In this document: one piece after another, positions 16,354 through 63,333 of the stretch
Layout: the number at the start of each line of letters is the position of its first letter
Numbering within the stretch: the stretch's first letter is position 1
Assembly: GCA_024102815.1 (NCBI GenBank)
Contig: JAGFJJ010000068.1
Location: 7,915 to 71,914 of the forward strand
DNA length: 64,000 nt
Reading direction: 5' to 3'
Source of the DNA: Phycisphaerae bacterium
Lineage (GTDB): Bacteria; Planctomycetota; Phycisphaerae; UBA1845
Made by a program: the position numbers and the translations under genes
The notes under the pieces: generated by a model
What the model was told of the DNA's origin: nothing
Databases searched by the model: none
What the model saw: only the letters and a program-made list of their open reading frames with translations

Positions 16354-16632
16354 ACCTTGCCCCTTTCGTGGCGACCCTGGATCGGATCGGCGACCCGGAC
16401 CGCGCTTTCGTAGCGGACGACGCTGTCCTGGCCCTGAGCCTCCCTGTCACCCCACCAATCGCAATTGACGCCGGGGTTTGCGCCAAAAAAATCGGTGGAA
16501 TTGCCGCGCGCCGGTGAGCTTGGCCCCAGGCAGGACGTGACGGGTCGTGAAACGAAACGGCCTCGGCCACCGCTGAGTGGGTGGAAGGGCGTACGGATCA
16601 GTGAGGCACGCAACGGTACGGGACACCAAAGG

Positions 16633-23811: not shown

Positions 23812-23922
23812 TAAGTACGGGCGATGCAAAGCGAATCGACAAGAGCGGTGCAGTCCCAAAACGCTGTTACCGGTGCGCGCCAGGCCGGGCGGTTCACGGG
23901 ACCATGCCGGGAGCTCGACAGG

Positions 23923-27324: not shown

Positions 27325-28880
27325 TTACCGGCAAACTCAAGAGCGATATCAACAAGCTCTGGGATGAATTCTGGACTGGCGGCATCAGTAACCCGCTGAC
27401 CGTCATCGAGCAGATCACCTACCTCATGTTCTTCCGGCTGCTCGATCTCGCGGCAGCCCGGGAAGAAAAAAAGGCAGCTCGCACCGGCAAGAAGGCAACA
27501 ACGCCATTCAACAAGAAGCAGCAACTCCTTCGCTGGTCGCAATTCAAGAGCCTCGGCGGCGAGGAGATGCTCAAGCGCATCCGCGACGAGGTGTTCCCCC
27601 ATTTTCGCGACATGGCCAGCGAGGAATCGACCTTTGGGCGTTACATGAAGGACGCCCAGCTGATGATTCAAAAGCCGAGTCTGCTCGTCTCGGCCGTCTC
27701 GATGATCGACAACCTCCCGCTCGACAAGGGCGATACCAAGGGCGATCTGTACGAATACGTCCTCAGCAAACTCACGACCGCCGGGATTAACGGCCAGTTC
27801 CGCACACCGCGCCACATCATCCGCCTCATGGTCGAACTGGTCGATCCCAAGCCGGACGAAACCGTTGGCGACCCGGCCTGTGGAACCGGCGGGTTTCTTG
27901 TCGCAGCCATGACCTATCTGCTGGAGAAATACACGTCCAAGGCCGGGCGCATCGAACAACTCGACGAAGACGGCCGACCGGTCAAGGACGATCGCGGCAA
28001 TCCGCAGTACATCTACACCGGCGACAAACTTGAACCCTACCGCAAACATATTCAGCGCGACATGTTCCACGGCTTCGATTTCGACGCCACCATGCTGCGC
28101 ATCGCCGTGATGAACATGATGCTCCACGGCGTCGATAATCCCAGCATCGACTACCAGGATGCGCTCAGCAACTCCTTTCCCGAGCGCTTTCCGAAGACGG
28201 CCTCCGACCACTTCGATGTCATTTTGGCCAATCCGCCGTTCAAGGGCAGCCTCGATCACAGTGACGTGCATTCGTCACTAACGGGCAAGATCAAGACGAA
28301 GAAGACCGAGCTGCTCTTTCCGACGCTCATGCTGCGCATGCTGAAGGACCCGGGCGGGCGATGTGCAGTTATCGTCCCGGACGGTGTCCTGTTCGGTTCG
28401 TCCAAGGCCCATCGCGATCTCAAGCAGATGCTCGTGGACGACAATGAGCTGCACGCGGTGATCAAGCTGCCGGCTGGCGTGTTCAAGCCCTACGCCGGAG
28501 TATCGACGGCCATTCTGTACTTCGCCAAGGGGGGTAAGACCGGCGACGTGTTCTTCTACGATGTGCAGGCCGACGGGCTCAGCCTGGACGATAAGCGCAC
28601 GCCCGTCGACGAGAATGATCTTCCCGATGTGATGGCGCAGTGGAATAGGTGGAGTAACGGTAATGGCAAGAAATCGTTCGCCGATCGCAAGAACAAAGCG
28701 TTCTTCGTTCCGGTTTCGGATATCCGCGAAGCCAAATACGACCTTTCCATCAACCGCTACAAGGAGGTCGTCTACGAGGAGCCCGAGTTCGACCCGCCGA
28801 AAGCAATCTTGAAGCGATTGGCCAAGTTGAACGAACAAGAGGCCAAAGAGCTTGCTGAGCTGGAGGGAATGCTGAAGTGA
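27321..28880 (+). CDS. hsdM: type I R-M N6-adenine DNA methyltransferase subunit
   Basis: [13 protein letters not shown] (motif I) and LANPPFKG (NPPF). 4-bp overlap with hsdR. Confidence 0.95.
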
Positions 28881-30094
28881 TGCGTATGGCGGCATTGCAA
28901 GACGTAACTGAGCTAAACCCTTCGACACCGCGGGAACTAAGCGAGCGCCCTGAGCTCCCTGTCAGTTTCGTGCCAATGACTGATGTCGGAGAGGATGGTC
29001 GTCTTCACAACGGCCAGGAGCGCCCAGTCGGCGAGTTACTGAAGGGCTATACGTACTTCTCTGAGGGCGACGTGCTAGTCGCGAAGATCACGCCGTGCAT
29101 GCAAAACGGTAAGGCGGCGCACGTGACCCGGCTGAAAAACAAACACGCGTTCGGTTCGACCGAATTCCACGTTCTTCGTCCCGGCCCGACGCTTGACGGT
29201 CGATACCTCTTTTACATGGTCTGGAATCCAGCGTTCAGGCACTACGCCGAGCAGCGATTCACAGGCTCTGCGGGCCAAAAGCGCGTTCCCGCGACCGCAG
29301 TCGCGGAATTCAAGATCCCAATTCCATTTCCGAATGATGCGAAGCGCAGTCTAAAGGAGCAGAAGCGGATCGCGGAGATCCTCGACAAGGCCGACGCCAT
29401 CCGGCAACAGCGCCAAGAAGCCGCCAAGCTGGCCGGTGACCTCATCCCGAGCTTATTCTACACGACCTTCGACGACTGGCTCCGTGCGCCTGTCGAAGAG
29501 ATGCGCAGGCTCGGCGACGAAGATCTTGCGGATATCGCGTCCGGCGTTACGAAGGGGCGTCGATTCAATGGTCAGCAGACTGTCATCGTTCCCTACATCC
29601 GCGTCGCAAATGTACAGGACGGGTATCTCGACCTTTCGGAGATCAAGACAATAGAAGTCCTGCCATCCGATGTTGAATCGCTGCGGCTCGAACACGGCGA
29701 TGTCCTTATGACAGAAGGTGGTGACTTCGATAAGCTCGGGCGTGGCACGATTTGGGAACATGATGTTCCCGATTGCATTCATCAGAACCATATCTTTCGC
29801 GTTCGGTGCAACAGGAACTTACTTCTGCCGCTGTACTTTGCGCATTACATCCGAAGCCACCTTGGCAAGGCGTATTTTCTCAGATGCGCAAAGAAGACAT
29901 CGAATCTCGCGACCATCAATAAAACTCAGTTGCGAGACTTGCCTGTCCCGCTGCCTCCCATAGCCTTGCAGAAGGCATTTGCCAAAGAAGTGAAAGGCAT
30001 CCGCAAAATACAGGGCCGCCACGCTGAAATATGCTATGCTGGCGATGACCTCTTCAACTCGTTGGCACAGCGGGCATTTCGGGGAGAGCTATGA
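28877..30094 (+). CDS. hsdS: type I R-M specificity subunit (two target-recognition domains)
   Basis: [23 protein letters not shown]...[10 protein letters not shown]...TGSAGQKRV...[19 protein letters not shown] and a second TRD. 4-bp overlap with hsdM. Confidence 0.85.
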
Positions 30095-32713: not shown

Positions 32714-34633
32714 ATGGCGGACGACTATCAAATCCAGGTCAACTTCTTGCCGATCGTCGGTGAACTGCCGAGCTTCGAGGTGTACCGCCGGCTCCGCAAA
32801 GATCCACAGGAAGAAAGACCAAGCTCCGAGAGTATGTCGCATTCGCTGCCTGTCTCGGGCTCAGACCTTGAAGAGCGAGCATCTTACTGGGTGAGCTTCA
32901 CGCCCACGGATTCCTTCGAACGTGTTCCAGTGGAGCCCTCGTTCAACCACGACTTAACGCGCGCCTTGCTGTTCCGGTGCATGCGTGATGCTGCAACGCA
33001 GAAGCTCCAGTCGGAGGAGTTTCACATTCCAGATCGCGGTTTCGTGGACGAGATCAGCTTCGTCATGGCGCGGCATCGGGAAGGACAAGAGCTACTCGTT
33101 GTTCAGCCGTACTACCTGCGAGCGACAGGACGCTTTGGATATCTTGTAGACTTTCATTTCCGGCTCGCCGACGACGTTCCGTTCTCGCGCCGCGTACAGC
33201 AGTTGAGCCTCAGCCTGGATCGGAACTTTCATCGGAACCTGGACTACTACGTCGACCGAACAAGTCGAATTCGGGCATTCCTACAGACGCAGAAGGCCCT
33301 CCTCGCGTCGCTTTCTGTGCCAGGAGCTTCCGTGCCCATGCGGATCTCAGACGAATTCGTGGACTTGCGGGCATTCCGCCTGCGATCGCGTTCATACGTC
33401 TTCGGCGCCGGACGTGAATCGCGGAGCCAATTCGTGGGCCTGAAAGAGCACGGGCCCATGAAGCCGTTGGAAACATCGCCTCGGCTACTGTTCTTCTTTC
33501 GAGAGCAGGACCGCACCGCGGCACGGAAACTAGCAATGTCGCTACGCGGATCGGGTGGCCGGGAGAGGTTCGCGTTTCCCGGCTTTCGTGCCCTTTTCAA
33601 GACGGACCTAACGCTCGATTCAGATCCAATCGTGTTGCCCGACTTCTCCCAGGCAGCGATGGCTAACGCGCTCGCACGCGTCAAGGAAGAGGATGGCCTA
33701 GTGCTGCCCGTTCTTGTTCTGCCAGATGATGACGAGAACGCGTATCTGACGCACAAGGCCACGTTCGTGCATGCAGGAATACCGTCCCAGGTCTGCACGC
33801 TTCCCGTCATCCAAGATGACGACACGCTCAAGTGGTCGATCGCGAACATTGCGTTGCAGATCTTTTGTAAGGCCGGTGGACAACCCTGGAAGGTGCGCCC
33901 GACGGGTGAGCCTTCGGTTATCATCGGCATCAGCCAATCACACAAACTGCGCCGAAAAGACGAATCCATAACAGTCGAGAAGTACTTCGCGTTCTCCGTC
34001 ATGACTGATAGCAGCGGGCTGTTCCAGCGGATCCAAATACTGGGGGAGGCGAGTGACGAGCTTTCGTACCTGGACCAGCTGCGAACCAGCCTCGCGCAGG
34101 TATTGGCGGAGACGTCGCAGCGCTTTTCCCGAGTCGTGATTCACACGTCGTTCAAGCTTCGCCACCGCGAGATGGACGCCATTCACAAGACTGTCGCTCA
34201 GGCGGCCGGCAAGACGGATCGCACTCAATGCCGTTTTGCCGTTGTCAAAGTCAATCACCGCCATCGGTTCTTCGGAGTCAATCGAGCGGTCAATAGCCTA
34301 GTACCGTTTGAAGCCACCGCTGTGCGGCTTGGCCCTGGTGAGTATCTTGTCTGGTTTGAGGGCATATTCCCTGATAAGCCTACCGTTACCAAGGCATTCC
34401 CGGGTCCTACGCACCTCAAGTTCCTTCGCGTCAGCGACGACAATGCGATCACGGACAATGAGTTGCTTCAGGACTTGGTCAATCTGTCGGGAGCGAATTG
34501 GAGGGGCTTCAATGCAAAAAGTGCTCCCGTCTCCGTGTTTTACTGTCACCTCGTTGCGAATCTCGTCCATGACTTCCACGAGCGTGGCCTGCCACTTCCG
34601 GCTGTCCAGGATCTGCGTCCGTGGTTCTTATGA
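32714..34633 (+). CDS. prokaryotic Argonaute (MID-PIWI), catalytically inactive
   Basis: MID 5'-end pocket YLTHKATFVHAGIPSQV. KAGGQPWKV. The PIWI first catalytic position reads VIIGISQSH (no Asp) and the RDG position reads VVIHTSFKL. C-terminal PVSVFYCHLVANLV. ~270-aa N-terminal region with no recognisable PAZ. Confidence 0.85.
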   Translation: MADDYQIQVNFLPIVGELPSFEVYRRLRKDPQEERPSSESMSHSLPVSGSDLEERASYWVSFTPTDSFERVPVEPSFNHDLTRALLFRCMRDAATQKLQSEEFHIPDRGFVDEISFVMARHREGQELLVVQPYYLRATGRFGYLVDFHFRLADDVPFSRRVQQLSLSLDRNFHRNLDYYVDRTSRIRAFLQTQKALLASLSVPGASVPMRISDEFVDLRAFRLRSRSYVFGAGRESRSQFVGLKEHGPMKPLETSPRLLFFFREQDRTAARKLAMSLRGSGGRERFAFPGFRALFKTDLTLDSDPIVLPDFSQAAMANALARVKEEDGLVLPVLVLPDDDENAYLTHKATFVHAGIPSQVCTLPVIQDDDTLKWSIANIALQIFCKAGGQPWKVRPTGEPSVIIGISQSHKLRRKDESITVEKYFAFSVMTDSSGLFQRIQILGEASDELSYLDQLRTSLAQVLAETSQRFSRVVIHTSFKLRHREMDAIHKTVAQAAGKTDRTQCRFAVVKVNHRHRFFGVNRAVNSLVPFEATAVRLGPGEYLVWFEGIFPDKPTVTKAFPGPTHLKFLRVSDDNAITDNELLQDLVNLSGANWRGFNAKSAPVSVFYCHLVANLVHDFHERGLPLPAVQDLRPWFL

Positions 34634-34639
34634 GGTCGC

Positions 34640-35743
34640 GTGATGACAACTCGCTCTAAGGACATAATCCTGCTCTTCGGCGCCGGCGCAAGCGCCGAGG
34701 CGGGTATTCCGACATCAGGGCAGATGATCGAGAGAATCGAATCGCTCTTCACGTCGCATGATGACTGGAAGCCGTACTACGACCTGTACAACCACGTGAA
34801 GAGTGCAATCTACTACGCCGCAGGGCTCAAAGGACAATTCAACGCGGACGTGCTCTACAATATTGAGACCCTGGTGAACACCCTTTATGAATTGGAGCGT
34901 AACGAGGATCACCCGCTCTACCCATTTATCGCCTCCTGGAACTCCCGCCTCGTCGCCTTGGCGCAGGGGGACTTCGCAGGTGTCCGCTCCCTCCGCAGCT
35001 TGATCCTGCGAGAGCTGAAGGGCTGGGTATGCCCAGACGATACAACCCCGGCCGACTACTATCGGGGCTTACTGCAGCTTCAACGTGATCTCAACTACCC
35101 GCTCCGAATCTTCTCGCTGAATTACGACTTGCTTGTTGAACGGCTCGAATCACCTGAGTTTCACATTGAGACTGGTTTCGCAGGGTACGGTCCGAGCCAC
35201 ATCTGGGACTGGGAAAGGTTTGAGGATAGCGAGTCGTCACCTAACCCCTTGCCGCAGGCCTTCCTGTACAAGCTTCACGGCTCGATCAACTGGAAGCGTG
35301 ACGACGCGACGAAGAACCTTTACCGCGTCGAGCACGTCGCAACCGTCGAGCCCGAACGAATGGAAGTGATCTTCGGCCGAGACTTTAAGCTGGAAGCCGC
35401 CGATCCTTATTTGTTCTATGCGTATGAGTTTCGCAAGTTCACGCTGATTGCGAAGCTAATCGTCACTGTAGGATATGGCTTCGGAGATGCCCATATCAAC
35501 AAGATGTTGACCCAAAGCCTCCGGGATGAGGGTAGCAGAAAACTTATCGTCGTGGCGCGATGTGCTGACGAGGAAGAACGTCGCGCCAGGCGACAGGATA
35601 TCGAGGATCGTTTGGAGCTTGACGAAGGACACGATGATCAAATCGACGTGCGTTCAGAATCGGCGTGTGATTTCCTGGGAATGAACGAGCTGAGCAATGT
35701 CCTCTTGTCAGCAATACCTGAGAGCCCGAACGCGCCCTTCTAA
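34640..35743 (+). CDS. SIR2-family protein (pAgo-associated effector candidate)
   Basis: LLFGAGASAEAGIPTSGQM (GAGxSxxxGIP), FSLNYDLLVE, LYKLHGSINW (catalytic His context). Starts 7 bp after the pAgo stop (GTG 34640 or ATG 34643). Too short (367 aa) to carry an APAZ domain. Confidence 0.8.
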   Translation: MMTTRSKDIILLFGAGASAEAGIPTSGQMIERIESLFTSHDDWKPYYDLYNHVKSAIYYAAGLKGQFNADVLYNIETLVNTLYELERNEDHPLYPFIASWNSRLVALAQGDFAGVRSLRSLILRELKGWVCPDDTTPADYYRGLLQLQRDLNYPLRIFSLNYDLLVERLESPEFHIETGFAGYGPSHIWDWERFEDSESSPNPLPQAFLYKLHGSINWKRDDATKNLYRVEHVATVEPERMEVIFGRDFKLEAADPYLFYAYEFRKFTLIAKLIVTVGYGFGDAHINKMLTQSLRDEGSRKLIVVARCADEEERRARRQDIEDRLELDEGHDDQIDVRSESACDFLGMNELSNVLLSAIPESPNAPF

Positions 35744-43517: not shown

Positions 43518-43583
43518 GATTCTCACCTCATTCCGCTGGAAGCACACGCTCCGCAGCGCGCAGCGTGTGCTTCCCTCCATATG

Positions 43584-44099
43584 TCAGGCCCTCGGCTGCC
43601 AAAACAGCCATCCGTTGGTCACGCCACCGCCGCGGCCTAAGCCATTGGCCTGCCGATAGGCTTCCGTCGCTTCGAGCGCGGCGCGCGTTGGCGTGATACA
43701 CAACCGTCCGTTCGCTGAGCCGGACGTGAGCAGGATGCTTCGTCCGCTCTTGACCTGCGGGTTCTCAACGACTTCCGCTGTGAATTCCTCACTTCCAATT
43801 CGGCCGACCACCTCCGTCCCGACTGGCCACCAGGCGTGCTTAACGCGCTCGGTGCCTACACAGGCCGTGGAGATCTTGGACTCGCGAGTGCGGCCCCGTT
43901 CATACTCACCTGCGGACATACTCGATGACGTCTGCCACGATGTGCTCGTAGCCTGGCCACGTGCTTGCCTCTCCGTATCAGATTGGGGAATCGCACGAGG
44001 CGGTGACTGTGCGAGCACGCCAGCCCTCAGAAACTCTATGTCGGCCGCTGTAAGCTCGCTCGCGACATCCAACATTAGCTTTGTACGTTCATCCAACAT
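43584..44099 (-). CDS. hypothetical protein
   Basis: 11-bp overlap with the vWA gene stop. The C-terminal ...NGWLFWQ resembles DUF4357-type tails, but the match is weak. Confidence 0.45.
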   Translation of the reverse strand: MLDERTKLMLDVASELTAADIEFLRAGVLAQSPPRAIPQSDTERQARGQATSTSWQTSSSMSAGEYERGRTRESKISTACVGTERVKHAWWPVGTEVVGRIGSEEFTAEVVENPQVKSGRSILLTSGSANGRLCITPTRAALEATEAYRQANGLGRGGGVTNGWLFWQPRA

Positions 44100-45972
44100 G
44101 GCGAAGTCCTTTCATAAGCGTGCGGCTCAGCAGCTTGCACAGCTCAGCCGGAAGTTCTTCGATTCGATGAACCACAATCGTGTCCGCCACGATCGCGCGC
44201 AAGCTTTCATCAGTGATCCCGACGCCAACCAGCTCAATCCCTGTTTTGATGGCTTGTTGCGCCACAAACTGTGCGTGCCGAACGGCGGCGTCATCGCAGG
44301 CCTCGCAGCCGGCGCGGCCGTCGGTCAACACAACGAGAATTCGCCGGCTCTCCGGTCGTTGAATCAGACGGCGTGCGGCTATTTGCATGCCTTCGCCCAG
44401 TGGCGTTAGGCCGGTGCCGCTGATCGTAGGCAAGCGGCGCAGGCCAGTCTTGACCGGCTCGTTGAACTGCTTGACCAGGCCGATCTCCAGATTCGCAAAG
44501 CGGCTGTAACGGGTGCGTATCTCGGTCGGGTCCTGGCCGGTCTCCTGAGCGACCTTGAACAAGTCAAAGTCTCGGCCGGTCGTGAAGGTGAGCGCCTCCG
44601 TGGCGACCTTCAGCTCCGCAAGTGCTTCCAGCAGGACCCGCAGCGCATCACGGGCGACTTCCATCTTGTTTCGGGTCATGCTGCCCGACGAATCGATCAA
44701 TATCGAAACAGCGGTCGAGCGACCCTGTACCATGGCGCGCGTTCGAAACACATCAACGCGAGGCCTGTCCATGCAGAGCCGGTGCAGTGTCTTGGGCGAC
44801 AACCGCCCTCGTTCCTGTTCATCGCGCCACCAACGTTTCTCCTGCGAACGCAGCGCATTGGCGAGACCTCGGCGCAGCCGGCGGATCACATCCGTATGAC
44901 GGCTCCGTAACTCGGCCACCTCACGCTCGCCGGCAAAAGTAATCGGCTGCATGCGATCCAACTCCTTGGTGTAGACGCGATACTCGGAGTTTGTGTTGAG
45001 CTGAGCGACGTGCTCCGCGATTGCTTTGGCTGCGATTTCACCGATCCAACTGCCGTGGTTGACCTTGCGTAGCTCTCCAGAACCGTCAGTCGATTCGGTA
45101 TCATTTTCCTGTGCCGAACCCGACTCAGATGCGGATGCGCCGCTTGCGTCATCTGTCGAGCAATCATCCTCCGGCTCGCCATCGCAGCCCGGATCAGAAT
45201 CATCCGAAGACGTTTCACGCGTCTCGCCGCTGGTTTCTTCCTTTCTGTCGAATTCGGTTGATGACTCAGGCGGGGGCGACTCGGATCCGCTTTCGCTTGA
45301 CGCAGTCCGATCACTCGGAGTGGCCCCGCCGTCATCCGTTCCGGGCGTTTCACGATTGTCGCCACCGGATTCACCTGGCGCGCCTGCTTCAGTTGGCGGC
45401 TGTTGCTTCAACCAACGATCGAGGAGCTGGCCTGCCAGATCAGCAGCGCCATCGGTGTCGTGGATTGCTGGGAACCACGCGAACAAGTCGTCGTAGCCCG
45501 CGACAAGGTCCTCCAGGCTAAGCATGTCCTTGTGATGCGACAGCTTCAAATAGACCGCCGTACAAAACTTGCCGAACGCGGCGCGCTGCCCGACGAGTCG
45601 CACGATTCGATCGCGGATCTGTCGAAACATCGCATCCAGATTGGCACGCACGCCGGGCCACCGTTCCATCGCACGGCGTTCGATCAACGCATCTTCGACC
45701 ACATTGAGCATAGCCTCGTATCCGGGATGTCGCTGCGAGAATCGCTTCACGACCCCGAAATCGGAGAAGGCCACATGGGCCATCTCATGATCCAAGAACC
45801 CTACCACCATACGCTCGAGCGCCTCGTCCATCGGTTCCGGAAGCGACGGCAGGACGATTTGTTTCCCGTCCGTCCAGGCCTCCTCGCCGCGGCAGATCAC
45901 GCGAACACCGAACTGATCAGTCAACGTTCGAGCCAGCCGTTCGAGCTGGCTTTCGAAGAGATTGAAATTCAT
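44089..45972 (-). CDS. CobT-like vWA-domain protein
   Basis: N-terminal GFLDHEMAHVAFSDF. Acidic Asp/Ser/Glu-rich linker. vWA MIDAS ILIDSSGSMT and VLTDGRAG. Confidence 0.85.
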   Translation of the reverse strand: MNFNLFESQLERLARTLTDQFGVRVICRGEEAWTDGKQIVLPSLPEPMDEALERMVVGFLDHEMAHVAFSDFGVVKRFSQRHPGYEAMLNVVEDALIERRAMERWPGVRANLDAMFRQIRDRIVRLVGQRAAFGKFCTAVYLKLSHHKDMLSLEDLVAGYDDLFAWFPAIHDTDGAADLAGQLLDRWLKQQPPTEAGAPGESGGDNRETPGTDDGGATPSDRTASSESGSESPPPESSTEFDRKEETSGETRETSSDDSDPGCDGEPEDDCSTDDASGASASESGSAQENDTESTDGSGELRKVNHGSWIGEIAAKAIAEHVAQLNTNSEYRVYTKELDRMQPITFAGEREVAELRSRHTDVIRRLRRGLANALRSQEKRWWRDEQERGRLSPKTLHRLCMDRPRVDVFRTRAMVQGRSTAVSILIDSSGSMTRNKMEVARDALRVLLEALAELKVATEALTFTTGRDFDLFKVAQETGQDPTEIRTRYSRFANLEIGLVKQFNEPVKTGLRRLPTISGTGLTPLGEGMQIAARRLIQRPESRRILVVLTDGRAGCEACDDAAVRHAQFVAQQAIKTGIELVGVGITDESLRAIVADTIVVHRIEELPAELCKLLSRTLMKGLRHVG

Positions 45973-46070
45973 TTTCTCTTGCTCCTTGCGATGCGCTAAA
46001 AAAAGGGCCGCGCCCGCCGCATCGCCATTGCGGGCGCAACCCTTTGTGATTCAGAGTCTTCGATTGGCGC

Positions 46071-47222
46071 TTAAGAAGCGGTGACCTTCTGCGCCAGGGG
46101 ACCGACGTGATGATCAAAGGTCTCGCGGACGACTTTGACATCCTCCGGCGGGACCTTGTTGAGCACGCAAACCGTAAGGGCCCGATCGAAGTCGTTTCCG
46201 CGATCCAGCCGAGCACAGAGCGCAAGCAAGCGCCGCGTGCTCAGCACCGTGGTTAGCTGCTCTTCGGCGTGCGCCTTCCTCAGATCCCCGGCCGATTTGA
46301 CCATGCACTTGATCAGGTCCTTGTTCAGCCTTGAATGTCGGGCACGCAGCAGCTCGATCTCTTGCTTGGGCGGTAGGTGATCCATACGCACTACCACGTC
46401 CCAGCGATCCAGCCAGCTGAAGTTGAGCACGTGCGTTCCGCTGGAATAAAGCCCCGAGTCGGATCCGAATCCCAACGTGTTGGCTGTAGCCACCAGCCGG
46501 AAATCCGGATGCGGAGCGATGTCCTCTCCAGTGTCCGTAAGTAGCAGGTGTCCACGGGGCTCAAGCACTTGCTGTAGAACGAAGCCCACCTCCGGCTGCA
46601 TGGCGTCGACTTCGTCCAACTGGAGGATCTGACCCTGTTCCAATGCCTGGGGCAGGATGCCCTTGACGAAAACTGTCTCCTTTCGTTCATTGACGGTCCA
46701 GTGCCCGATGAAGTCGCCCACGCTGGTCTCGCCGTTGAGCGAGACCCGCCGCACCGGTCGTTGCGTGAGCGCGCCGATTTGCCGAACCAGCGAGCTCTTG
46801 CCTGTGCCGCTCGGGCCGTAGATGAACACGCGTTCGTTGTGCTCGACCGCCTCCGCCACGTCTCGGCAGGGCTCCGTCCACACGAATGTCGGATCTTCCC
46901 GCGGAACAAGAGGGTGCTCGATGCCGAAGCTCGCGGTCATTGCGGCGCCGGCCACGTCAATCTGGTAACGCAAGACACCGGCAACTCGGTTGACGTTGCG
47001 ATCATGCAAGAACGCCCCGAACTCGCCTGTCGCCAGGGCTTGCTCTGGAAACTGCGCCTGAATCGCCTCGGGTTCGACGTTGTGCTCGTTCCGCAAGTGC
47101 GGAATGAGCGTCATTTTCTCCGATCGCCCGCAGAGCGGACACTTCAATTGATCTGCCATGAGAATACTCCTGATGAAAAAGAACCGGCGGCCGAACGGAC
47201 CCTGCGCGCGCAGGGAATCCAC
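46071..47222 (-). CDS. CobS/MoxR-like AAA+ ATPase (AAA_5) with N-terminal zinc finger
   Basis: VFIYGPSGTGKSSLVRQIG Walker A, ILQLDEVD Walker B, LKCPLCG...HLRNEH. Confidence 0.85.
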   Translation of the reverse strand: MDSLRAQGPFGRRFFFIRSILMADQLKCPLCGRSEKMTLIPHLRNEHNVEPEAIQAQFPEQALATGEFGAFLHDRNVNRVAGVLRYQIDVAGAAMTASFGIEHPLVPREDPTFVWTEPCRDVAEAVEHNERVFIYGPSGTGKSSLVRQIGALTQRPVRRVSLNGETSVGDFIGHWTVNERKETVFVKGILPQALEQGQILQLDEVDAMQPEVGFVLQQVLEPRGHLLLTDTGEDIAPHPDFRLVATANTLGFGSDSGLYSSGTHVLNFSWLDRWDVVVRMDHLPPKQEIELLRARHSRLNKDLIKCMVKSAGDLRKAHAEEQLTTVLSTRRLLALCARLDRGNDFDRALTVCVLNKVPPEDVKVVRETFDHHVGPLAQKVTAS

Positions 47223-50236: not shown

Positions 50237-50992
50237 TCAACCAGCGCTCCTTTCTGATTCACGGTCGGCAAAGAGCTCCGGTGCGATTTCGGAGAGCGTC
50301 TTCGGCTCCCAGTACAGGTCCCGTTCAATGGGAAGTCCCATCGGGCCACGCGCCGACTCGAGCTCTGACAGGCTGAAGTAGCCAAGCTCCTTCTCGAATC
50401 CACACGCCAGTCCGAAGAATGTGTCCTCGCCATCATATTCCACGCCGTACCATGTCCATCCAGAATCCGGCGTGAAGAACTTCACGTACGCAACTGCATG
50501 GCCCCCCTTGCCGTCCTGGGCATAGAGCGGCGGGAGCCGGCGGCGCAGCGCTTTGGTTAGGAGTTTCATCCCTCGGACGACCGTGGCGTCCTTCCTGAGG
50601 TCGTTCGGCACCGGCGGCGCCGGTACCGCTGGAATGAACTTCACCTGATTCGCCTCGGGCATCAGAACAACGCGCTCGTTGCGGTCGCTGAGCCACTCGA
50701 TGTACGGGTACGGCGTGTATGACTCCGGCGCAAGGCCCGCCGTCATGTTCCCGGTGAGTCCCGTCTGCTGCAGCGCAAACCCCTCCATCTGATCCTCTGC
50801 TTCCATGGCTGTTCCTTCGTAACACCCTGAGAGGACGAGCTTGCCGCCCCGAACGTCGCGATCGAAGTCGCCCTCCAGGTCTACGGTCACGGTTTCTTCC
50901 AGGCCCGCAAACCGCAGCCAGCCTATGACTCTGCCAGGTCTGGTGTTGTCCAATTCGCCTTCAAGCAAATACTTCATAGGTCTCCATGTCAT
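50237..50992 (-). CDS. DUF2958-domain protein
   Basis: LPPLYAQDGKGGHAVAYVKFFTPDSGWTWYGVEYDGEDTFFGLACGFEKELGYFSLSELE. ATG 50992 is preceded by GGAGG. Confidence 0.8.
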   Translation of the reverse strand: MTWRPMKYLLEGELDNTRPGRVIGWLRFAGLEETVTVDLEGDFDRDVRGGKLVLSGCYEGTAMEAEDQMEGFALQQTGLTGNMTAGLAPESYTPYPYIEWLSDRNERVVLMPEANQVKFIPAVPAPPVPNDLRKDATVVRGMKLLTKALRRRLPPLYAQDGKGGHAVAYVKFFTPDSGWTWYGVEYDGEDTFFGLACGFEKELGYFSLSELESARGPMGLPIERDLYWEPKTLSEIAPELFADRESERSAG

Positions 50993-51450
50993 GTTGACAC
51001 CTCCGATTTGTGCTCTCGATGGCACGTCTCGCGCGCCTGACGTGCCATCTGCCGTTAATCTCTCTATGCGCGCAAACGAAGAGCCCCGAACGCCGGGACC
51101 CTGTCTCGTCGTGTGTTTGATGCAGCCGCTTCTCTAAATCCGCGGGGCCGAATGCAGTTACTCGTCGGTAATTGTGCGTCCGAAGGGCGTGATAGAATCA
51201 GCTAATGCGATCGTGGGCTGGCTGTTCGCCAATCCCTCCTTCTCGTCGAGGATCCGCTTCGTGATGGCCGTTCGGGCGATGCCCCGGTTCTGTCACGTGC
51301 TGAGTGATCCTCGGGCAAGGCCCGCGAGTGTCGCGGGTTGACCCTACCCATGCGCCTGTGCGCTTGTGAGGATTATTAAGTAGTGCCATGGAAATGCGTT
51401 GGCATTCATAAGTCTTTCGGTATCGTTGCCCAAGCGTTTATAGATATACA

Positions 51451-56746: not shown

Positions 56747-57172
56747 TCAGCAGTACCATCCGCCGTACTGCGTCGGCATTCCGTGTGCTTCCTTTGGGAT
56801 ATTCCCATACATATGACCCATCGACGGATGTCGCTCGCAACGCGTGAACGGTTCCCGTGCGAAGATCTCATCCAGCGTCCGGTAGACGTCGATCGCCCGC
56901 CGGAGCATATCCTCCTCATCGTTCGGCCGCCCGTGGGCGAACGTGCCCAAGTACATGTTTCGCCCATTGCGCCGGTAACCTTGATCGACCGCACAAGGCC
57001 TGTGCGCCGCATCCACCGGAGGGATGATGCCCAGGAGAATCTCCGGGTGCCGGCATACGTAGGCGACACCATAGCGATCGAGCATTCGGCCGGCACGCAC
57101 GTATGCCGCGTGACTCGTGTCGGGACTGTCAGACGATGCGGCCCGGCGATCCCAGGGGGCGCCGTCCCTCAT
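56747..57172 (-). CDS. hypothetical protein
   Basis: 4-bp overlap with the upstream membrane-protein gene. No family recognised. Confidence 0.4.
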   Translation of the reverse strand: MRDGAPWDRRAASSDSPDTSHAAYVRAGRMLDRYGVAYVCRHPEILLGIIPPVDAAHRPCAVDQGYRRNGRNMYLGTFAHGRPNDEEDMLRRAIDVYRTLDEIFAREPFTRCERHPSMGHMYGNIPKEAHGMPTQYGGWYC

Positions 57173-58257
57173 CCAGAACCACCCTTACCGTATTCCTTGG
57201 CCAAGTCCTCGGCAATGCCCGCCACTTTGCGCTCGGTCCGGTCGATGATCTTGAACAGTTTCTCATTGTGTGCCTGTAGCTTCTCTGCCTCCTCCAGCAT
57301 CTCGGACAGCCGCCGGTAATCGTAGCGCAGCGTCGCCCTTCGGGCTTCGAGCGTCAGGTCTTTGATCCTCCGTTCGTTCTCCGCGACCGCGGCGTCCAGT
57401 CGTTCCAGCCGCTTGTCGAGGCGCATCTCATGGTAGCGCGCGGAAAGCTCATTCGATGCCTTCTTCCGAGCCGCCGCCGGTAGTCGCCTGACGATATGCC
57501 GCAACTCGTCGATCCTTGCGGCGTGTCCCTCGCGTACGTGGTGCGCCCGTTCCCGAAGGCGCGCCAGGCGCTCGGTCAGCCACCCCTCGGCCGGCAACAA
57601 CCGGCGGAGCTGCTCGACGATCTGCGTTCCCTGCTGCGGATGCTCGACAAAGACATCCGTCTCCTGTCGCAAGCCCATCAAGGCGCTGCGGATTCTGTCA
57701 CCTACTTGGCGGTCCTCGTAGAGATCGCGCATGTCATGGCGCACATCTGCCAGCTCCGGTCCAACCGAAGCCGGAATGAGACGTCCCGGGGGGCCGTGGC
57801 CGTGCAGGTGAATCAGAAACGCCACGATCCCGACGATCAGCGCAACGATGGCAAGCGTCTGGACAATTTCGGTTGCGATCATCCAGTCGAATCCCAGCAC
57901 CCATGCCACCAGGATGCTCGCGCCGAAGGCGATTCCCGCGCCGGCCCAGGAGCCGCCGGTCCGACGGATGCCCTGGAACATGATCATGGCCAGCAGGATC
58001 ACCGCGAAACCGATGGCGATCGGCCCGAGATTCCGAACCGACCACCCGTGCTGGTGTTCCCACCAGACCAAACCGATGGCCAGGGCCAATCCCAGGGCCG
58101 CCGACATGGCCACCGCAGGCTTCTGGTGATCAAAGCGCTTGCCCAACACCGCGTAAGCGAGCGCGGTGAAAAAGGCAAACGCAAGCACGAAATCCGGAAG
58201 AAGTGATTCGAAGAACGGCCTGATTGCAGGGGTCGCGAGCGGATTCGTAGGACTCAT
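57169..58257 (-). CDS. polytopic membrane protein with cytoplasmic coiled-coil tail
   Basis: Five or six hydrophobic helices in the N-terminal 170 aa, followed by a helical charged region. Confidence 0.65.
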   Translation of the reverse strand: MSPTNPLATPAIRPFFESLLPDFVLAFAFFTALAYAVLGKRFDHQKPAVAMSAALGLALAIGLVWWEHQHGWSVRNLGPIAIGFAVILLAMIMFQGIRRTGGSWAGAGIAFGASILVAWVLGFDWMIATEIVQTLAIVALIVGIVAFLIHLHGHGPPGRLIPASVGPELADVRHDMRDLYEDRQVGDRIRSALMGLRQETDVFVEHPQQGTQIVEQLRRLLPAEGWLTERLARLRERAHHVREGHAARIDELRHIVRRLPAAARKKASNELSARYHEMRLDKRLERLDAAVAENERRIKDLTLEARRATLRYDYRRLSEMLEEAEKLQAHNEKLFKIIDRTERKVAGIAEDLAKEYGKGGSG

Positions 58258-58275: not shown

Positions 58276-58527
58276 CTAGTATATATATCTTGCTGTTTCG
58301 ACACTCACCGTATTGAACGGTTTCCGGCAGCGCTGGCACACGATCTTGTCTTCCCTTGTTCCCCTCGGTATGCCGATTTCAAGCCCACAAACGGGGCAAC
58401 CGGTGACGTAGAACTCCTTCAGCATGCGCTCACCCCGTTGCGTCCTGAACGCCACGGCATCGCCAGGGTCCGTGACTCGCCCCAGTTCCCAGAGACGATC
58501 GTCGATGATGTACTCCACGCCGCGCAA
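58276..58527 (-). CDS. small zinc-ribbon protein (start uncertain; may be the 49-aa form from ATG 58425)
   Basis: CPVCG...CQRCRKPF. The track start is TTG. Confidence 0.35.
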   Translation of the reverse strand: MRGVEYIIDDRLWELGRVTDPGDAVAFRTQRGERMLKEFYVTGCPVCGLEIGIPRGTREDKIVCQRCRKPFNTVSVETARYIY

Positions 58528-58695
58528 GCGGACGCGTGGCAGCCAGCGTGGGCCTGAGTATCGTTGTATTGTCTACGTCATGTTGCATTCCTCCCGGCCG
58601 AACCACTCTATTGGCGGTTCGTCCAGGCGATTCGTGAACCGCTGCATCCCGGACGATCGCCTGAATGCCCGACCGAGTACCGGCGAGGTGCCAGT

Positions 58696-58953
58696 GAGAG
58701 TAGCGTTCCACTGGAACCCTTATTATAATATGTATATCCCTTCTACTACTTACTACTACTATCAAAAGACAACGCTTATAAACCCCGCCCCATAGATCAC
58801 AACCCACGTTGCCACTACTCGGTAGTAACGCGGTGGCCGCCAGCGCACGAGCCGCTTCGGACGTTCCACTGGAACGTTACTCTGGGTGAGGATCGAAGCC
58901 TTTATATACCAGCTGTTCCACTGAAGGCATGTGGAGGTGGTTTTCCAATGGAA
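58696..58953. other. putative Orc1/Cdc6-dependent replication origin: inverted ORB-like boxes flanking an AT-rich unwinding region
   Basis: AGAGTAGC-GTTCCACTGGAAC (58696..58717) and, inverted, GTTCCACTGGAAC-GTTACTCT (58863..58884) bracket 145 bp. That span contains TTATTATAATATGTATAT and a (TAC)n tract, and it is far more AT-rich than its surroundings. Weaker copies: GTTCCACTGAAGG (58915..58927) and TTCCAATGGAA (58943..58953, overlapping the orc1 ATG). Confidence 0.6.
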
Positions 58954-60195
58954 TCAGCAACCGTGCGCAGCAAAATACTCGGCCGGATACGGCACATGGC
59001 CAGAAGCGCCATCATCAGAGACCGGCGCTTTCTGGACGACGAGCAACTGATTCGCTCCGAGCAACTGGCCGTCCTGGAGGAGATTTTCAACGCCAATGTG
59101 CGCGACGCCGAAATCCAGGAACTCAGCAGCCATTTCGCCGGCATCCTGCGCGGTGACCATCCATGCCATCTGGCCATATGGGGCAAGACCGGTACGGGCA
59201 AGACGCTGACGTTGAGCTTTTTTCTGAACCTGTTGGCCGAGATGGCCCGTGCGAGGCACGTTGCGCTTCGTCACGAGCAGCTTGACGTCTCGACGCCCAG
59301 GCCCTGTTTCCGGGCGCTCAACGATCTCGCCTGCCTGCTCGGTGCAAGCAAGCGCTACAAGAAGGGCATCTCGCTCGAGGAGCTGATGCTCCGGATCGAA
59401 GCCAAGCTCGCCGGCTACGACGGCTACCTGATCCTCTTCATTGATGAAGTCGACAATGTGCGGCGCGATCGTGACACCTTCCTGACCTTTCTGGTTCGCC
59501 GGCTTCCGCAGCGCATCAAGGCCAGACTCGTCCTCGTGTTTGCCTCCAACCGGCTCAACTGGCCGGACCACTTGGACCCGCGCGTGAAGTCGTTTCTCAA
59601 GCTCAACGAGCTGATCTTCAAGCCCTACGACGCGGTCGACCTCCAGTACATCCTGCGCATTCGCGTGGAAAAGGCGCTGAACCCCAATACCGTGGAGCCG
59701 GGCGTCATCGAGAAGATCGCCGCGATGGCCAGCCAGGACCATGGCGACGCCCGGAAGGCCGTCGCCCTGCTCGCCAAGAGCGCGTATCTCGCCGAGAAGG
59801 CCGGTAGCGCCATCACGCTTGACCTGGTCGACAGCGCCGCGGCCGAGCTGGACCGCGATCGCTATCTCACCTTGCTGCGCTCCGCACCGACACAACTCCA
59901 GGCGGCCATGGCCGCAGTGATCGAAGCGACCCGCCGATCCAACGGCATGCCCATCGGCACCGGCGAGGCCTACGACGCCTACAACCGGTTCTGCCGACGG
60001 GTCGGGCTGCGGGGGATGACGGGGCGCGCATTCGGCGACCTGCTCGCCGAGCTGGATATCTATTCGCTGATTCGCAGTCGCATCCTCTCCCGCGGGCGCT
60101 ACGGCCGCACGCGCGAAATCACCATCGACCTGCCGCAGGAACTCGTCGAAAAAATCGACGGTACCATCCGGATGAACTTCGACGTCCATGGCTGA
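58948..60195 (+). CDS. Orc1/Cdc6-family AAA+ initiator protein
   Basis: LAIWGKTGTGKT (Walker A), LILFIDEVD (Walker B), VFASN (sensor 1), HGDARKAVALL. C-terminal winged-helix RGRYGRTREITIDL. GGAGG upstream. Confidence 0.9.
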   Translation: MESATVRSKILGRIRHMARSAIIRDRRFLDDEQLIRSEQLAVLEEIFNANVRDAEIQELSSHFAGILRGDHPCHLAIWGKTGTGKTLTLSFFLNLLAEMARARHVALRHEQLDVSTPRPCFRALNDLACLLGASKRYKKGISLEELMLRIEAKLAGYDGYLILFIDEVDNVRRDRDTFLTFLVRRLPQRIKARLVLVFASNRLNWPDHLDPRVKSFLKLNELIFKPYDAVDLQYILRIRVEKALNPNTVEPGVIEKIAAMASQDHGDARKAVALLAKSAYLAEKAGSAITLDLVDSAAAELDRDRYLTLLRSAPTQLQAAMAAVIEATRRSNGMPIGTGEAYDAYNRFCRRVGLRGMTGRAFGDLLAELDIYSLIRSRILSRGRYGRTREITIDLPQELVEKIDGTIRMNFDVHG

Positions 60196-60233: not shown

Positions 60234-60539
60234 TCAGAGGACCCGTTCCTCCTCAACCGCCGCGGTCACCTCATCGTTGGCCTTCGGGGTACCCGCCGGT
60301 TTCTCAATCATGGCCTCGAACGCCTTCTGCAACACGTAGATCGCCAATGGGATCTCGTTCCTTGCAAAGCTCTGCGAGCTCCGCCAGTTGCCCGCCGAGT
60401 CCGTGTAGCGCCTGGCCACGGTCGCCTTCAAAATCGTGCCCGAATGCCCCTTCATCTGCACCTTGTTCTCCCATAGCGCGCCCTCGACTTGGCCCGCACG
60501 GAAGCGTTGTATTGGTTCGTTGCTCTCCATCTTTTCCAC
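60234..60539 (-). CDS. small protein, tandem paralogue 1 (possibly PC4/ssDNA-binding-like; weak)
   Basis: RFRAGQVEGALWENK...KATVARRYTDSAGNWRSSQSFARNEIPLAIYVLQKAFEAM. Likely start ATG 60530. Confidence 0.55.
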   Translation of the reverse strand: MEKMESNEPIQRFRAGQVEGALWENKVQMKGHSGTILKATVARRYTDSAGNWRSSQSFARNEIPLAIYVLQKAFEAMIEKPAGTPKANDEVTAAVEEERVL

Positions 60540-60555: not shown

Positions 60556-60870
60556 TTACGCGGCCGACCTCTTCACACCGAGTCGAAGAGGTTCGGTCGT
60601 CTTCGCCTCTATCGCCCGGGCAATCTCATGATCGATCTGCATGTCGACCATCGCCTCGAAAGCCCTCCTGAGCACATCGATCGCCAAAAGGGTCTCACTT
60701 GGCGAAAACCGGAAGGATTGCTTCCAATATCCATAGCGATCGCGGTACCGTTTCGCCACCGTCACCTTCAGCGTGCGCTCCGCCGTACTGCTTCCGTAGG
60801 TCCCATTTTCCCAGATCGCACATGTTACCTGACCGGCGCGGAACACCCGTACTGGTTGCCTCGTTTCCAT
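60556..60870 (-). CDS. small protein, tandem paralogue 2
   Basis: VFRAGQVTCAIWENG...KVTVAKRYRDRYGYWKQSFRFSPSETLLAIDVLRRAFEAM. Internal ATG 60870. The upstream sequence CACCTCGAA(G/C)CC is also duplicated. Confidence 0.55.
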   Translation of the reverse strand: METRQPVRVFRAGQVTCAIWENGTYGSSTAERTLKVTVAKRYRDRYGYWKQSFRFSPSETLLAIDVLRRAFEAMVDMQIDHEIARAIEAKTTEPLRLGVKRSAA

Positions 60871-60952
60871 AGTTGTCACCTCGAACCCCATCGACTGCCG
60901 CGACAGGGCTCTTCGCGCCAGCTTGAAGAGGCCTTGACGCCGCTTGGACGAA

Positions 60953-61516
60953 CTAATCGTCTTGCTCCGCCGCTGCCCGTCTAGCCTCCCAAGCGGCACG
61001 CCTCAGCCCACGGATCCTACGACGCAGCGTCCTTGCCCGCAGATACCATCGTGCGAATGCCCACTGACTCCAATCGTCGAAGTAATCCGCCTCCACGTTG
61101 AACATGTGGATCATCCTCAGCGCCTCACCACGTGCTTCGTTAGCCAGACGTTGTGAAACGACGCCCAGCATGATGACAGCGTTCCTCAGATCCTCCTCAA
61201 GCTCCTGTGCCAAGCGCAAGCCCGGGTTGAACGTCGGCCTCAATCTGTCGAAGTCGACGGTTCCAAAGGCCCCCCAATCGAGCTTGTTATTCCCATCTAA
61301 CTGCGGGCGAATCAAAGGGCGCTTCCATGTGATCGGAATCGCCAGTATCGGGCCCCACTCGGCGATCATCACCTGCCGCTCCAACTCATCGGGATCGGCC
61401 AGCTCTTCGTCCTCCAATCCCGGCACGCTCCCGTACCCTGTGCCTCGCTCCACCTTCAGCAGGGCTGATTCTGCAACGACCACTCCTCCCTCAATCCATC
61501 CTTCTTCCGTCTTCAT
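60953..61516 (-). CDS. hypothetical protein
   Basis: Internal ATG 61516 (MKTEEGWIEGG...) is preceded by GGAGG. Confidence 0.5.
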   Translation of the reverse strand: MKTEEGWIEGGVVVAESALLKVERGTGYGSVPGLEDEELADPDELERQVMIAEWGPILAIPITWKRPLIRPQLDGNNKLDWGAFGTVDFDRLRPTFNPGLRLAQELEEDLRNAVIMLGVVSQRLANEARGEALRMIHMFNVEADYFDDWSQWAFARWYLRARTLRRRIRGLRRAAWEARRAAAEQDD

Positions 61517-62334: not shown

Positions 62335-63333
62335 TTAGGGAGTCTGCGTGGCGTCGCGCCGCGAAATCCGGGTGCACCTGATACGTATCTGTGCAGGACG
62401 AACGGCGTCGTCTCCACCGCCCCCAAACCGTGGCGAGACCACGATTTCGACATGGGAACGCGCCCTCGCCCCGCGACTGCAACCTCGCAAATGGAGCGGT
62501 AAGCAAATCCTCGCAGGAGAAGTGGATCAGCTACTACCACACTACTTATTATTCGATTTTCTGCACCAGCCATAACTCCTGCCCCGGCAAGGGTTTGGCT
62601 TATCGGCATGAGTACGTTAAAAGTACGATTCGGCGAGCCTCAACTCGCGATAAGCGCACAGTTCGGCACGACTTAGTGTACGGTTTCGGTGGATAGAGTC
62701 CGCGCTGTCCACACGGAGCGGGGCGGACCTTCCGGAATGGCCGGGGCGTCCGTCGGGTGCGCTTGCTTGCAGAGCGGGAAGCCGGACGCGTCACCGAGCA
62801 ATGCACCCCACCATCGACCTCGATCGCGCGCGCCCTCCTGACATCAGTCATCCGCCTCCGTCGCCCGCACCGGCGGGTGGAAGCCGCATGAACCGTCGTC
62901 GGTGCGGTGGCGTTGAACTGCGTGGCCGAGCGACTACATGCCCCGTCTACCGCCACATTGGCGCGCACGCTAACCCTCGTCACCTGCCACGGGAGCACCA
63001 GCCCAGACTCGCGAAACGCCGGCCCCTCAACCTCCTGCCGGCCAGCGGGCTGGACGCGGTGTCTCGGCTGGCCCAAGGTGGTCCACGGGCACGTTCGCCC
63101 GTCGTCCAGGGGTAGCCAGATCAAGATGCGGGACGCCGCGCATTTCGCACGCGAATCGCGGTTGATAGAATGCTCGCGGCGGTGTGCGCGTCGGTCTCGC
63201 CGGTTGGAGCACCGAGTTTCTGTTCCGTCGTTGCGATGTTGCCCGGTTGGGTCGGCCAACCGAATCCCAAGCGCCCCCGCCGAGACAATGTTCGGCTCCG
63301 AACAAGGTGAGGCATCTGGCTGGAGCAGCCGCC

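Follow-up and report, generated by a model that had tools for sequence, protein, structure and literature searches.

Origins built from origin recognition boxes (ORBs) and served by Orc1/Cdc6 initiators are treated as a hallmark of Archaea, with a derived form in Eukarya; Bacteria use DnaA or plasmid Rep proteins. A 64,000-nucleotide stretch of contig JAGFJJ010000068.1 from a Phycisphaerae bacterium (the window, analyzed at its full length) carries an orc1/cdc6 gene directly preceded by ORB-like boxes, and raises the question of how an archaeal-type origin could fire with bacterial replication machinery. Positions 58690-60195 were read, with moderate confidence, as the replicator-initiator module (a vegetative origin with its own initiator gene) of an integrated mobile element, with a design that follows archaeal Orc1/ORB origins. 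The open-access full-text literature yielded no account of Orc1/Cdc6 origins in bacteria (an absence that is not proof), and the phrases "bacterial Orc1" and "bacterial Cdc6" had zero occurrences in the open-access full texts searched. The genes themselves are already present in public metagenome-assembled genomes (MAGs) as "Cdc6/Cdc18 family protein", and TIGR02928 serves in one recent preprint as a marker of archaeal chromosomes. The apparent novelty lies in recognizing the cognate ORB-type origin, the conservation of this origin across the family and its integrative-element context in a bacterial phylum.

The Orc1/Cdc6 protein and the boxes upstream of its gene

The original prediction, made by a model from the sequence of the window, had described the gene product as a full Orc1/Cdc6 initiator with AAA+ and winged-helix parts. 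This assignment was borne out by Pfam (AAA+ domain AAA_22, Cdc6_lid at 6e-16 and the Cdc6_C winged helix at 8.8e-19) and by the NCBIfam model TIGR02928 (236.6 bits against a curated cut-off of 181.3). The Walker A (GKTGTGKT), Walker B (LFIDEVD) and sensor-2 (GDAR) motifs were intact, as was the winged-helix wing SRGRYGRTREI, which aligned with SRGRYGKTREV and NRGRYGKTKEI of the ORB-bound initiators A. pernix ORC1 and S. solfataricus Orc1-1. These two proteins were also the best solved relatives (2v1u_A at 1.1e-53 and 2qby_A at 6.4e-52). Because the alignment was shallow, the AlphaFold model of Orc1 was of moderate quality (predicted local distance difference test, pLDDT, 62.6) and served only to confirm the fold; Foldseek on this model returned 2v1u_A at 6.4e-20 with 32% identity. 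The archaeal solved chains aligned from query residue 52 onward only, and residues 1-50 formed a conserved N-terminal extension (mean conservation 0.85). A public gene call (P0001, 399 aa) starts at internal Met16 (58993). Since residues 1-15 are conserved, GGAGGTG lies at -15 and most relatives are 415 aa long, the true start was placed at 58948.

More than 2100 homologues were retrieved at E ≤ 1e-5, and the best 120 clusters were 75-91% identical to the query. Those named by organism belonged to Planctomycetota (Phycisphaerae, Tepidisphaeraceae and Phycisphaerales). Among representatives clustered at 50% identity, full-length relatives stepped down from 59% to 40-51% (metagenomic) and then to a plateau at about 27-38%. 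One of the first full-length representatives on this plateau (P0138, 37% identity) was the chromosomal Orc1/Cdc6 of Acidilobus, the only one of ten looked-up representatives whose cluster names an organism.

Upstream of the gene, the window has two exact copies of the 13-mer GTTCCACTGGAAC (58705-58717 and 58863-58875) and no others. When two mismatches were allowed, it gave 8 strand-hits against 1.4 expected, a count reached in 0 of 100 shuffles. A repeat finder placed the two copies in inverted arms of 21 nt (58697-58717 and 58863-58883) that were 90% complementary and separated by 145 nt; the arms read AGAGTAGC... and ...GTTACTCT, and the AGAGTA(G/A)C flanks faced outward, as had been proposed. 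The original prediction had further placed between the boxes the most AT-rich tract of that part of the window, and this held beyond the local claim: by nearest-neighbour free energy, no other 40- or 60-bp duplex in the 64 kb was as unstable as 58721-58780 (z = 5.4-5.7, with the runner-up in the window at z ~3.6). A second low-stability tract with (TAC)-like repeats (GCTACTACCACACTACTTATTATT) was observed at 62520-62559, and no ORB-like box was found near it.

The boxes of the window span -250 to -6 relative to the orc1 ATG (58948-58950), and their offsets match in relatives. Two weaker copies had been announced ahead of the gene, and these were located as mini-boxes 3 and 4, the latter across the ATG (Table 1). 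Their placement, near the candidate promoter and across the start codon, fits the autoregulation that had been called compatible with the arrangement. A scan for sigma-70 consensus promoters gave no match, so the probable role of TTTATATAC as the -10-like element of orc1/cdc6 is drawn from upstream conservation. The sole "terminator" returned by a terminator scan was the distal box itself together with the T-rich tract after it. An imperfect palindrome, GTTGCCACTACTCGGTAGTAAC (58808-58829), lies inside the GC-rich spacer, and relatives have roughly TTACCAnnnnnTGGTAAC. Two isolated TTCCGCTGGAA palindromes were also seen in the window (43531-43576 and 46436-46446). The former partly coincides with the left arm of an almost perfect hairpin, GGAAGCACACGCT...AGCGTGTGCTTCC, just upstream of an open reading frame (ORF) at 43584-44099; this hairpin is probably a terminator unrelated to the origin.

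Conservation of the layout and likeness to archaeal origins

About 130 related loci were gathered, nearly all of them from Planctomycetota (mostly Phycisphaerae). These included a genome set of 48 loci in species-representative genomes, 38 of which had enough upstream sequence, and a metagenome set of 80 independent loci, 59 of which were testable for the box pair. Twenty upstream regions were aligned (alignment A1), and the following order was observed: the distal extended box CCAGTGnGAGTAnn-TTTCCACTGGAAC, an AT-/CT-rich segment, (TAC)n, AGnGACnACGCTTATAAACC, a variable GC-rich spacer, the proximal inverted extended box GTTCCACTGGAAA-nCTACTCTCnCTG, TTTATATACC, the third box GCTTCCACTGnAC, GGAGGTG and the fourth box TTTTCCAATGGAAC enclosing the ATG. 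The family consensus of the distal box was CCAGTGnGAGTAnnTTTCCACTGGAAC, and the columns of mini-box 3 were near-invariant. Judged by their sequences, the boxes read as extended ORBs of ~27 bp with a conserved GAGTA flank.

An oriented 20-mer (GAGTAnnTTTCCAnTGGAAC, ≤ 4 substitutions) was used as the search pattern, and the outward-facing extended pair was present in 31/38 genome loci and 45/59 metagenome loci. In the genome loci, the plus-strand copy lay between -230 and -330, apart from one outlier at -425, and the minus-strand copy at -82 to -142. The box-to-box spacing in relatives was 143-198 nt (median 165). Weak matches to the 20-mer on both strands of the flanks numbered 6 in 1.06 Mb for the genome set and 13 in 1.16 Mb for the metagenome set. 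Across the 48 genome loci, the palindrome TTCCAnTGGAA was confined to the ≤ 420 nt upstream of orc1, with 0 copies in ~0.53 Mb of flanks, and the 13-mer with up to two mismatches was 57-fold enriched upstream of orc1. Chance and a dispersed repeat were ruled out as sources of the boxes by the shuffles and by this scarcity in the flanks (19 weak matches in 2.2 Mb), so the dispersal that the original prediction had named as a danger to itself was not seen.

In ~24 of 36 genome loci (about two-thirds), the distal box was immediately followed by the most AT-rich 40-mer within ±3 kb; this tract lay in the 165-300 nt upstream of orc1. The upstream neighbour varied: some loci have a Zn-ribbon ORF there, others a membrane protein or other gene clusters, and others again over 1 kb without a conserved or large ORF. 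Because the position of the tract is kept despite this variation, it was assigned to the orc1-linked module and not to the neighbouring gene. The (TAC)n run had n = 2-8, and (TAC)3 occurred in 69/93 loci at about -220 (>100-fold enriched); its bottom strand reads (GTA/TAG)n. In some loci an (AGT)n run precedes it and gives a AGTAGTAGTA...TACTACTACT symmetry. The adjoining motif ACGCTTATAAACC, with up to two substitutions, was found in 71/93 loci at a median position of -202, and its density was 1.68 per kb near the gene vs 0.009 per kb in the flanks (~190-fold). It may serve as a -10-like element of a promoter, contribute to the unwinding element or be bound by a second factor. To our knowledge, neither (TAC)n nor ACGCTTATAAACC is known from archaeal origins.

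Closer to the gene, TTTATATA with at most one substitution was present upstream in 88/93 loci (modal position -47), CTTCCACTG in 81/93 (recurrent position -33) and TTTCCnATGGAA in 86/93 (modal position -6; 2.91 per kb vs 0.003 per kb in the flanks). The layout was kept in a locus with 40% protein identity (L049), which has GAGTAATCTTCCGATGGAAA, a CT/AT tract, GTTCCATCGGAAAAC, CTTATATAC and the ATG. The distal and proximal boxes tended to share the CCGATGG or CCA(C/G)TGG variant within a locus (7/10 vs 7/57). Where residues separated the box-variant groups, the exchanges were conservative and followed phylogeny; recognition elements showed no clear change, and co-variation of protein and box is confounded by the phylogeny.

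Some copies departed from this layout. Insertion sequence (IS) transposases were observed just upstream of orc1 in L020 (2197-3567, DDE_Tnp_1_4), L021 (5987-7717, Mu-type/rve) and L024 (815-1942, IS110), and because L020 and L021 are without the distal box, the origin-like region has apparently been disrupted by insertion in some copies. In L051 (P0125, 51% identity) a single TTTCCAGTGGAAAC box lies at -17 and further boxes lie in the coding region (+163 and +280). The orc1-like gene of this locus, a neighbour of a bacterial HU gene, encodes a protein with no recorded match to the Cdc6 winged-helix family; it may represent a different, degenerate or repurposed lineage.

The boxes had been likened to archaeal mini-ORBs, and a published sequence supports the likeness. 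The oligonucleotide of P. furiosus ORB1 that is bound by Cdc6/Orc1 is AAAACCCCCCAGAGTTTCATTTCCACTGGAACCAGG, and TTCC and GAA are invariant ORB core motifs (PMC1904270). The family consensus core TTTCCACTGGAAC was identical to the ORB1 core at 13/13 positions, and the window's own copy at 12/13. The flank CCAGnGnGAGTA resembles CCCCCAGAGTTTCA, and CCAGAGT of ORB1 resembles it with a one-base offset. In P. abyssi, two long ORBs of oriC form an inverted repeat and are accompanied by AT-rich regions and several mini-ORBs (PMC1904270); cdc6 follows directly downstream of this origin (PMC4010727). As in Pyrococcus oriC/cdc6, Sulfolobus oriC1/orc1-1 and Aeropyrum ori1/ORC1, the initiator gene of the window is directly downstream of the origin-like region, inverted long ORBs flank the AT-rich putative unwinding region and are joined by mini-ORBs, and the dyad core is TTCC-N3-GGAA. 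Compared with 2v1u and 2qby, the ORB-bound initiators, the Orc1/Cdc6 protein has 30-32% identity and a conserved DNA-contacting wing. Unlike these archaeal pairs, the module is in a planctomycete host, with the Shine-Dalgarno sequence GGAGGTG and with sigma-54 and other bacterial genes around it, and it belongs to a tRNA-targeting integrative element and not to a chromosomal origin. Its boxes have no G/C string of the archaeal long ORB but the extension CCAGTGnGAGTAnn and a GAGTA/CCAG flank, its protein has a conserved N-terminal extension of ~30 residues, and no MCM partner is evident among the scanned ORFs of the window or the conserved neighbours.

Three other kinds of replicon were compared. 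Orc1-encoding archaeal plasmids, proviruses and integrated elements (haloarchaeal megaplasmids and betapleolipovirus SNJ2-like proviruses) likewise have their own Orc1/Cdc6 beside non-coding repeats, some of them together with an integrase. The family described here differs in being bacterial and closer to the chromosomal Orc1-1 type (37% to the Orc1/Cdc6 of Acidilobus), and the SNJ2 homologue is a regulator and not an initiator. The DnaA/oriC system is similar in that an AAA+ initiator gene lies beside the origin, duplex boxes border an easily melted tract with trinucleotide periodicity (Richardson et al. in 2016 reportedly described DnaA-trios at bacterial oriC) and the initiator probably regulates its own gene; it differs in that the initiator here is of the Orc1/Cdc6 clade, DnaA is absent and DnaA boxes are not enriched. 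Actinomycete integrative and conjugative elements (AICEs, pSAM2-like) combine a tRNA-targeting tyrosine integrase with their own initiator and origin and an FtsK/HerA-type ATPase, and their initiators are of RepSA, RepAM or Prim-Pol types. The modular logic of an integrase at a tRNA, an own initiator and origin, and an FtsK/HerA-type DNA-translocating ATPase is shared; the initiator here is Orc1/Cdc6, with no sequence relationship to those of AICEs, and the conjugative role of the ATPase is putative.

The same anatomy would also suit a regulatory role, in which the element uses its Orc1/Cdc6 homologue as a transcription factor (an autorepressor and divergent-promoter regulator, for example in a switch for excision or induction), the boxes are operators on either side of a promoter region, and no replication starts there. 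This explanation deserves weight but is unlikely. It has precedents in SNJ2 Orf8, which activates a lysogeny-induction switch (PMC10123103), and in Sulfolobus Orc1-2, which is a DNA-damage regulator (PMC6061795). It also agrees with the two boxes at the orc1 promoter, ribosome-binding site and ATG, with the TATAAT/TATAAA-like hexamers in the tract and the usually divergent upstream gene, and with the failure to find a helicase partner among the conserved neighbours. However, the protein is closest to origin-binding Orc1-1/ORC1 and not to Orc1-2-like regulators, the sites are of full ORB type with a core identical to a biochemically defined origin box, and the tract keeps its extreme instability (z ~5.5) and (TAC)n grammar while the upstream gene varies, several loci having more than 1 kb of upstream DNA without a conserved or large ORF. 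Boxes at the promoter are no obstacle to an origin, given that autoregulation and origin function coexist in archaeal origins (PMC4010727). The Orc1-1 class of the protein, the full ORBs and the neighbour-independent tract grammar were the grounds for preferring the origin model over operators alone.

The integrative element around the module

The bacterial context that the original prediction had pointed out was confirmed by a sigma-54 activator in the window (22210-23775) and by the relatives: the 48 genome loci were all in Planctomycetota MAGs except for one Kiritimatiellae bin. Six MAGs carried two loci each, and the closest locus (L001, 90% identity) was in a Phycisphaerae MAG. Among chromosome-level assemblies, L017 has a full-length copy and L044 and L046 have partial copies.

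In ~20 genome loci a Replic_Relax gene (PF13814, 6.8e-15) follows orc1 on the opposite strand, and a tyrosine integrase (PF00589, 3.7e-23) was present in 13 genome loci. Of the 10 integrase loci examined, 8 had a tRNA gene (Met, Phe x3, Val, Lys x2 and Arg) at 5-90 nt past the integrase. The gene order in relatives is orc1, Replic_Relax, tyrosine integrase and tRNA, which puts the ORB/orc1 module ~4 kb from one element end. Since Replic_Relax, the tyrosine integrase and the tRNA adjoin the module in relatives, it was interpreted as the probable origin of an element and not of a chromosome. The backbone was defined by ORF clustering of the 48 genome loci and a Pfam scan of representatives; its recurrent members were a HerA/FtsK-type ATPase, a membrane/coiled-coil protein, ArdC-N, DUF932, DUF2958, Replic_Relax and small ORFs. 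The carriers are thus tRNA-targeting integrative elements, possibly conjugative ones.

Backbone genes of the window lie at roughly 50-62 kb (Table 1). The best NCBIfam match of the HerA/FtsK-type ATPase was the archaeal DNA-translocating ATPase CedD, with weaker matches to VirB4/TraC, and this protein could be the DNA-transfer motor of the element; its C-terminus reads like a PD-(D/E)xK nuclease motif (DIVAERPGERLAIEVETGKSD). The small-gene family downstream of orc1 had 577 homologues and no Pfam domain, and its few named members were planctomycete hypothetical proteins. The model of the small protein showed a beta-beta-beta-beta-alpha fold (core pLDDT 84-95); a PC4-like binder of single-stranded DNA was considered and rejected, with no significant PDB match (Foldseek best E 0.11).

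Table 1. Positions of the module's elements and of adjoining backbone genes in the window
Feature	Positions	Strand	Content or basis
Distal extended ORB-like box	58690..58717	+	GCCAGTGAGAGTAGC + core GTTCCACTGGAAC; GAGTA flank away from the AT-rich tract
Candidate DNA-unwinding element (AT-rich, lowest stability)	58718..58771	.	TATAATAT..., C/T run, (TAC)n at 58744-58761
Conserved motif ACGCTTATAAACC	58772..58784	+	Near-invariant in alignment A1
Variable GC-rich spacer	58785..58862	.	Alignment A1 and inverted-repeat search
Proximal extended ORB-like box	58863..58889	-	Core GTTCCACTGGAAC + GTTACTCTGGGTGA; inverted copy of the distal box
Probable -10-like element TTTATATAC of orc1/cdc6	58901..58909	+	Upstream conservation
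Mini-box 3	58915..58927	+	GTTCCACTGAAGG; between the promoter-like element and the Shine-Dalgarno sequence
Shine-Dalgarno GGAGGTG, bacterial translation signal	58933..58939	+	Exact in 58/93 loci at -15
Mini-box 4	58942..58954	+	TTTCCAATGGAAT; encloses the ATG
orc1/cdc6, 415 aa	58948..60195	+	Pfam, TIGR02928 and PDB matches
HerA/FtsK-type ATPase, 705 aa	54602-56719	+	tblastn: 15 loci
Membrane/coiled-coil protein	57169-58257	-	tblastn: 16 loci
Zn-ribbon ORF	58276-58527	-	tblastn: 6 loci; ORF clustering: 13
Two paralogous small backbone genes, convergent on orc1	60234-60539, 60556-60999	-	20-23 of 48 loci

A Replic_Relax homologue of the window (16465-17538) lies 42 kb from orc1 and is 43% identical to the one adjoining orc1 in relatives. 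Its distance would reflect either a very large element with a defence island as cargo, a rearrangement, or a second element. Between these positions the window has a type I restriction-modification (R-M) system (23824-30094), and a short prokaryotic Argonaute (pAgo; Piwi domain, 1.7e-20) followed by a SIR2_2-domain protein (32714-35743), which look like a short-pAgo/SIR2 defence pair. DUF4209, DUF2130 and AAA_15/21 genes were observed downstream of that pair. A CobT-like VWA protein and an AAA_5 (MoxR/CbbQ-like) ATPase form a further pair at 44089-47222, and a DUF2958 protein lies at 50237-51025; a CobT-VWA/AAA_5/DUF2958 set is common on conjugative elements and plasmids. A Ser/Thr kinase with TPR repeats is also present in the window.

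With so much defence-related DNA close by (the R-M system, short pAgo with SIR2, an AAA_15/21 ATPase and the HerA-like ATPase), the Orc1-like ATPase might itself be a component of anti-phage defence or conflict, comparable to the ORC/Cdc6-like BrxC, with the repeats as incidental regulatory sites. A weak BrxC_BrxD match in Pfam (E 0.0043, below the cut-off) points the same way. This is improbable: the Orc1 protein had no PADLOC match, its conserved neighbours (integrase, Replic_Relax, ArdC-N, DUF932 and DUF2958) are a mobile backbone, and it has a complete Cdc6 winged helix and ORB-type sites.

No phage, IMG/VR or bacterial plasmid record with the family was found, and matches among PLSDB plasmids were all archaeal, at ≤ 33% identity; a known bacterial plasmid or phage replicon was rejected on these results. 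The cumulative GC skew had no inflection at 58.7 kb. Together with the negative PADLOC result, the lack of phage and plasmid records and the flat skew fit a mobile-element origin that is silent while integrated. A secondary, domesticated origin that aids replication of the host chromosome is very improbable in comparison with these observations, although archaeal multi-origin chromosomes arose by replicator-initiator capture (PMC4010727) and copies do lie inside closed chromosomes (L017). Copy number varies, truncated or IS-disrupted copies exist, the module adjoins an integrase and a tRNA, its distribution is patchy with 75-91% identity across genomes, as expected of mobile DNA, and the skew has no inflection at the site. 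That the boxes are an origin of transfer (oriT) or a recombination site (att) is just as implausible, for although conjugation-like genes are present (the HerA/VirB4/CedD-like ATPase, ArdC-N and Replic_Relax) and inverted repeats are common at oriT, these repeats match the binding site of the Orc1 class and not a relaxase site, no relaxase was found in Pfam scans of the window and the backbone proteins, and att would be expected at the tRNA ~4 kb away.

How the module might work and what it would mean

As a replicator-initiator module, the locus would operate as follows. Orc1/Cdc6 would bind the two extended ORB-like boxes through its winged helix and the initiator-specific motif, and binding at these outward-facing sites, with an interval of ~145 bp, would distort and melt the AT/(TAC)n tract beside the distal box. 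Orc1 would repress its own gene through the boxes between TTTATATAC and the ribosome-binding site and across the ATG, and after excision by the tyrosine integrase the origin would maintain or amplify the circular element. For the step that follows melting we have a tentative proposal, which we consider possible but doubtful: the archaeal-type origin would fire without MCM, Orc1 would hand the melted DNA to bacterial DnaB/DnaC or to PriA, and (TAC)n would act as a single-strand register for the AAA+ oligomer, comparable to DnaA-trios with DnaA. That register is a purely hypothetical role, suggested by analogy; the run might instead be bound by another factor or belong to a promoter. The rewiring of Orc1 toward bacterial machinery would perhaps have been achieved through its conserved N-terminal extension.

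Several results weigh against an origin at this locus. Pfam, NCBIfam and PHROGs scans of the backbone proteins found no linked helicase or primase, and neither MCM nor another helicase turned up in the scanned ORFs of the window or the conserved neighbours. Of the conserved proteins, only Orc1, the integrase and the HerA-like ATPase reached 400 aa. The large ORFs that lie upstream in other loci were mainly IS transposases, with no helicase or primase among them. As far as we know, MCM is not expected in bacteria. DnaA boxes (TTATCCACA) occurred at 0.26 per kb upstream vs 0.17 per kb in the flanks, with none between the ORB boxes, and a hybrid DnaA/Orc1 origin was rejected for this want of enrichment. 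No terminal overlaps indicating circular contigs were present in the 80 metagenomic loci, only some of which had the whole contig; because of this, and because plasmid and phage records are lacking, an extrachromosomal replicating form was not seen. No integrase of the relatives' family and no tRNA was found within the 64 kb of the window, and an Rfam scan of it found nothing. As the integrase family was not found and the Replic_Relax homologue is far off, either the element ends lie outside the window or this copy has been rearranged. The tract could be a promoter between two operators, because it has -10-like sequences and the upstream gene is mostly divergent. Finally, the origin function proposed here is deduced from sequence.

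The 75-91% protein identity, the conserved box layout and the occurrence on hundreds of independent contigs in one phylum point to strong selection on the module. Should it not fire, it would still be a clear case in which a bacterial element took over an archaeal initiator, together with its operator, for regulatory switching. Should it fire, an Orc1-type initiator would be able to function with a helicase other than MCM, a point relevant to the matching of initiators and helicases as replication evolved, and a compact candidate replicon of ~1.6 kb would become available for genetic tools in Planctomycetota, which are now scarce. TIGR02928 would then be unusable as an exclusively archaeal marker in metagenome screens. 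On the reading favoured here, the protein and its cis-acting origin would have crossed the domain boundary together, and if the tentative proposal of a hand-over to bacterial machinery is true as well, a natural cross-domain hybrid pathway of replisome loading would exist in widespread integrative elements of planctomycetes.

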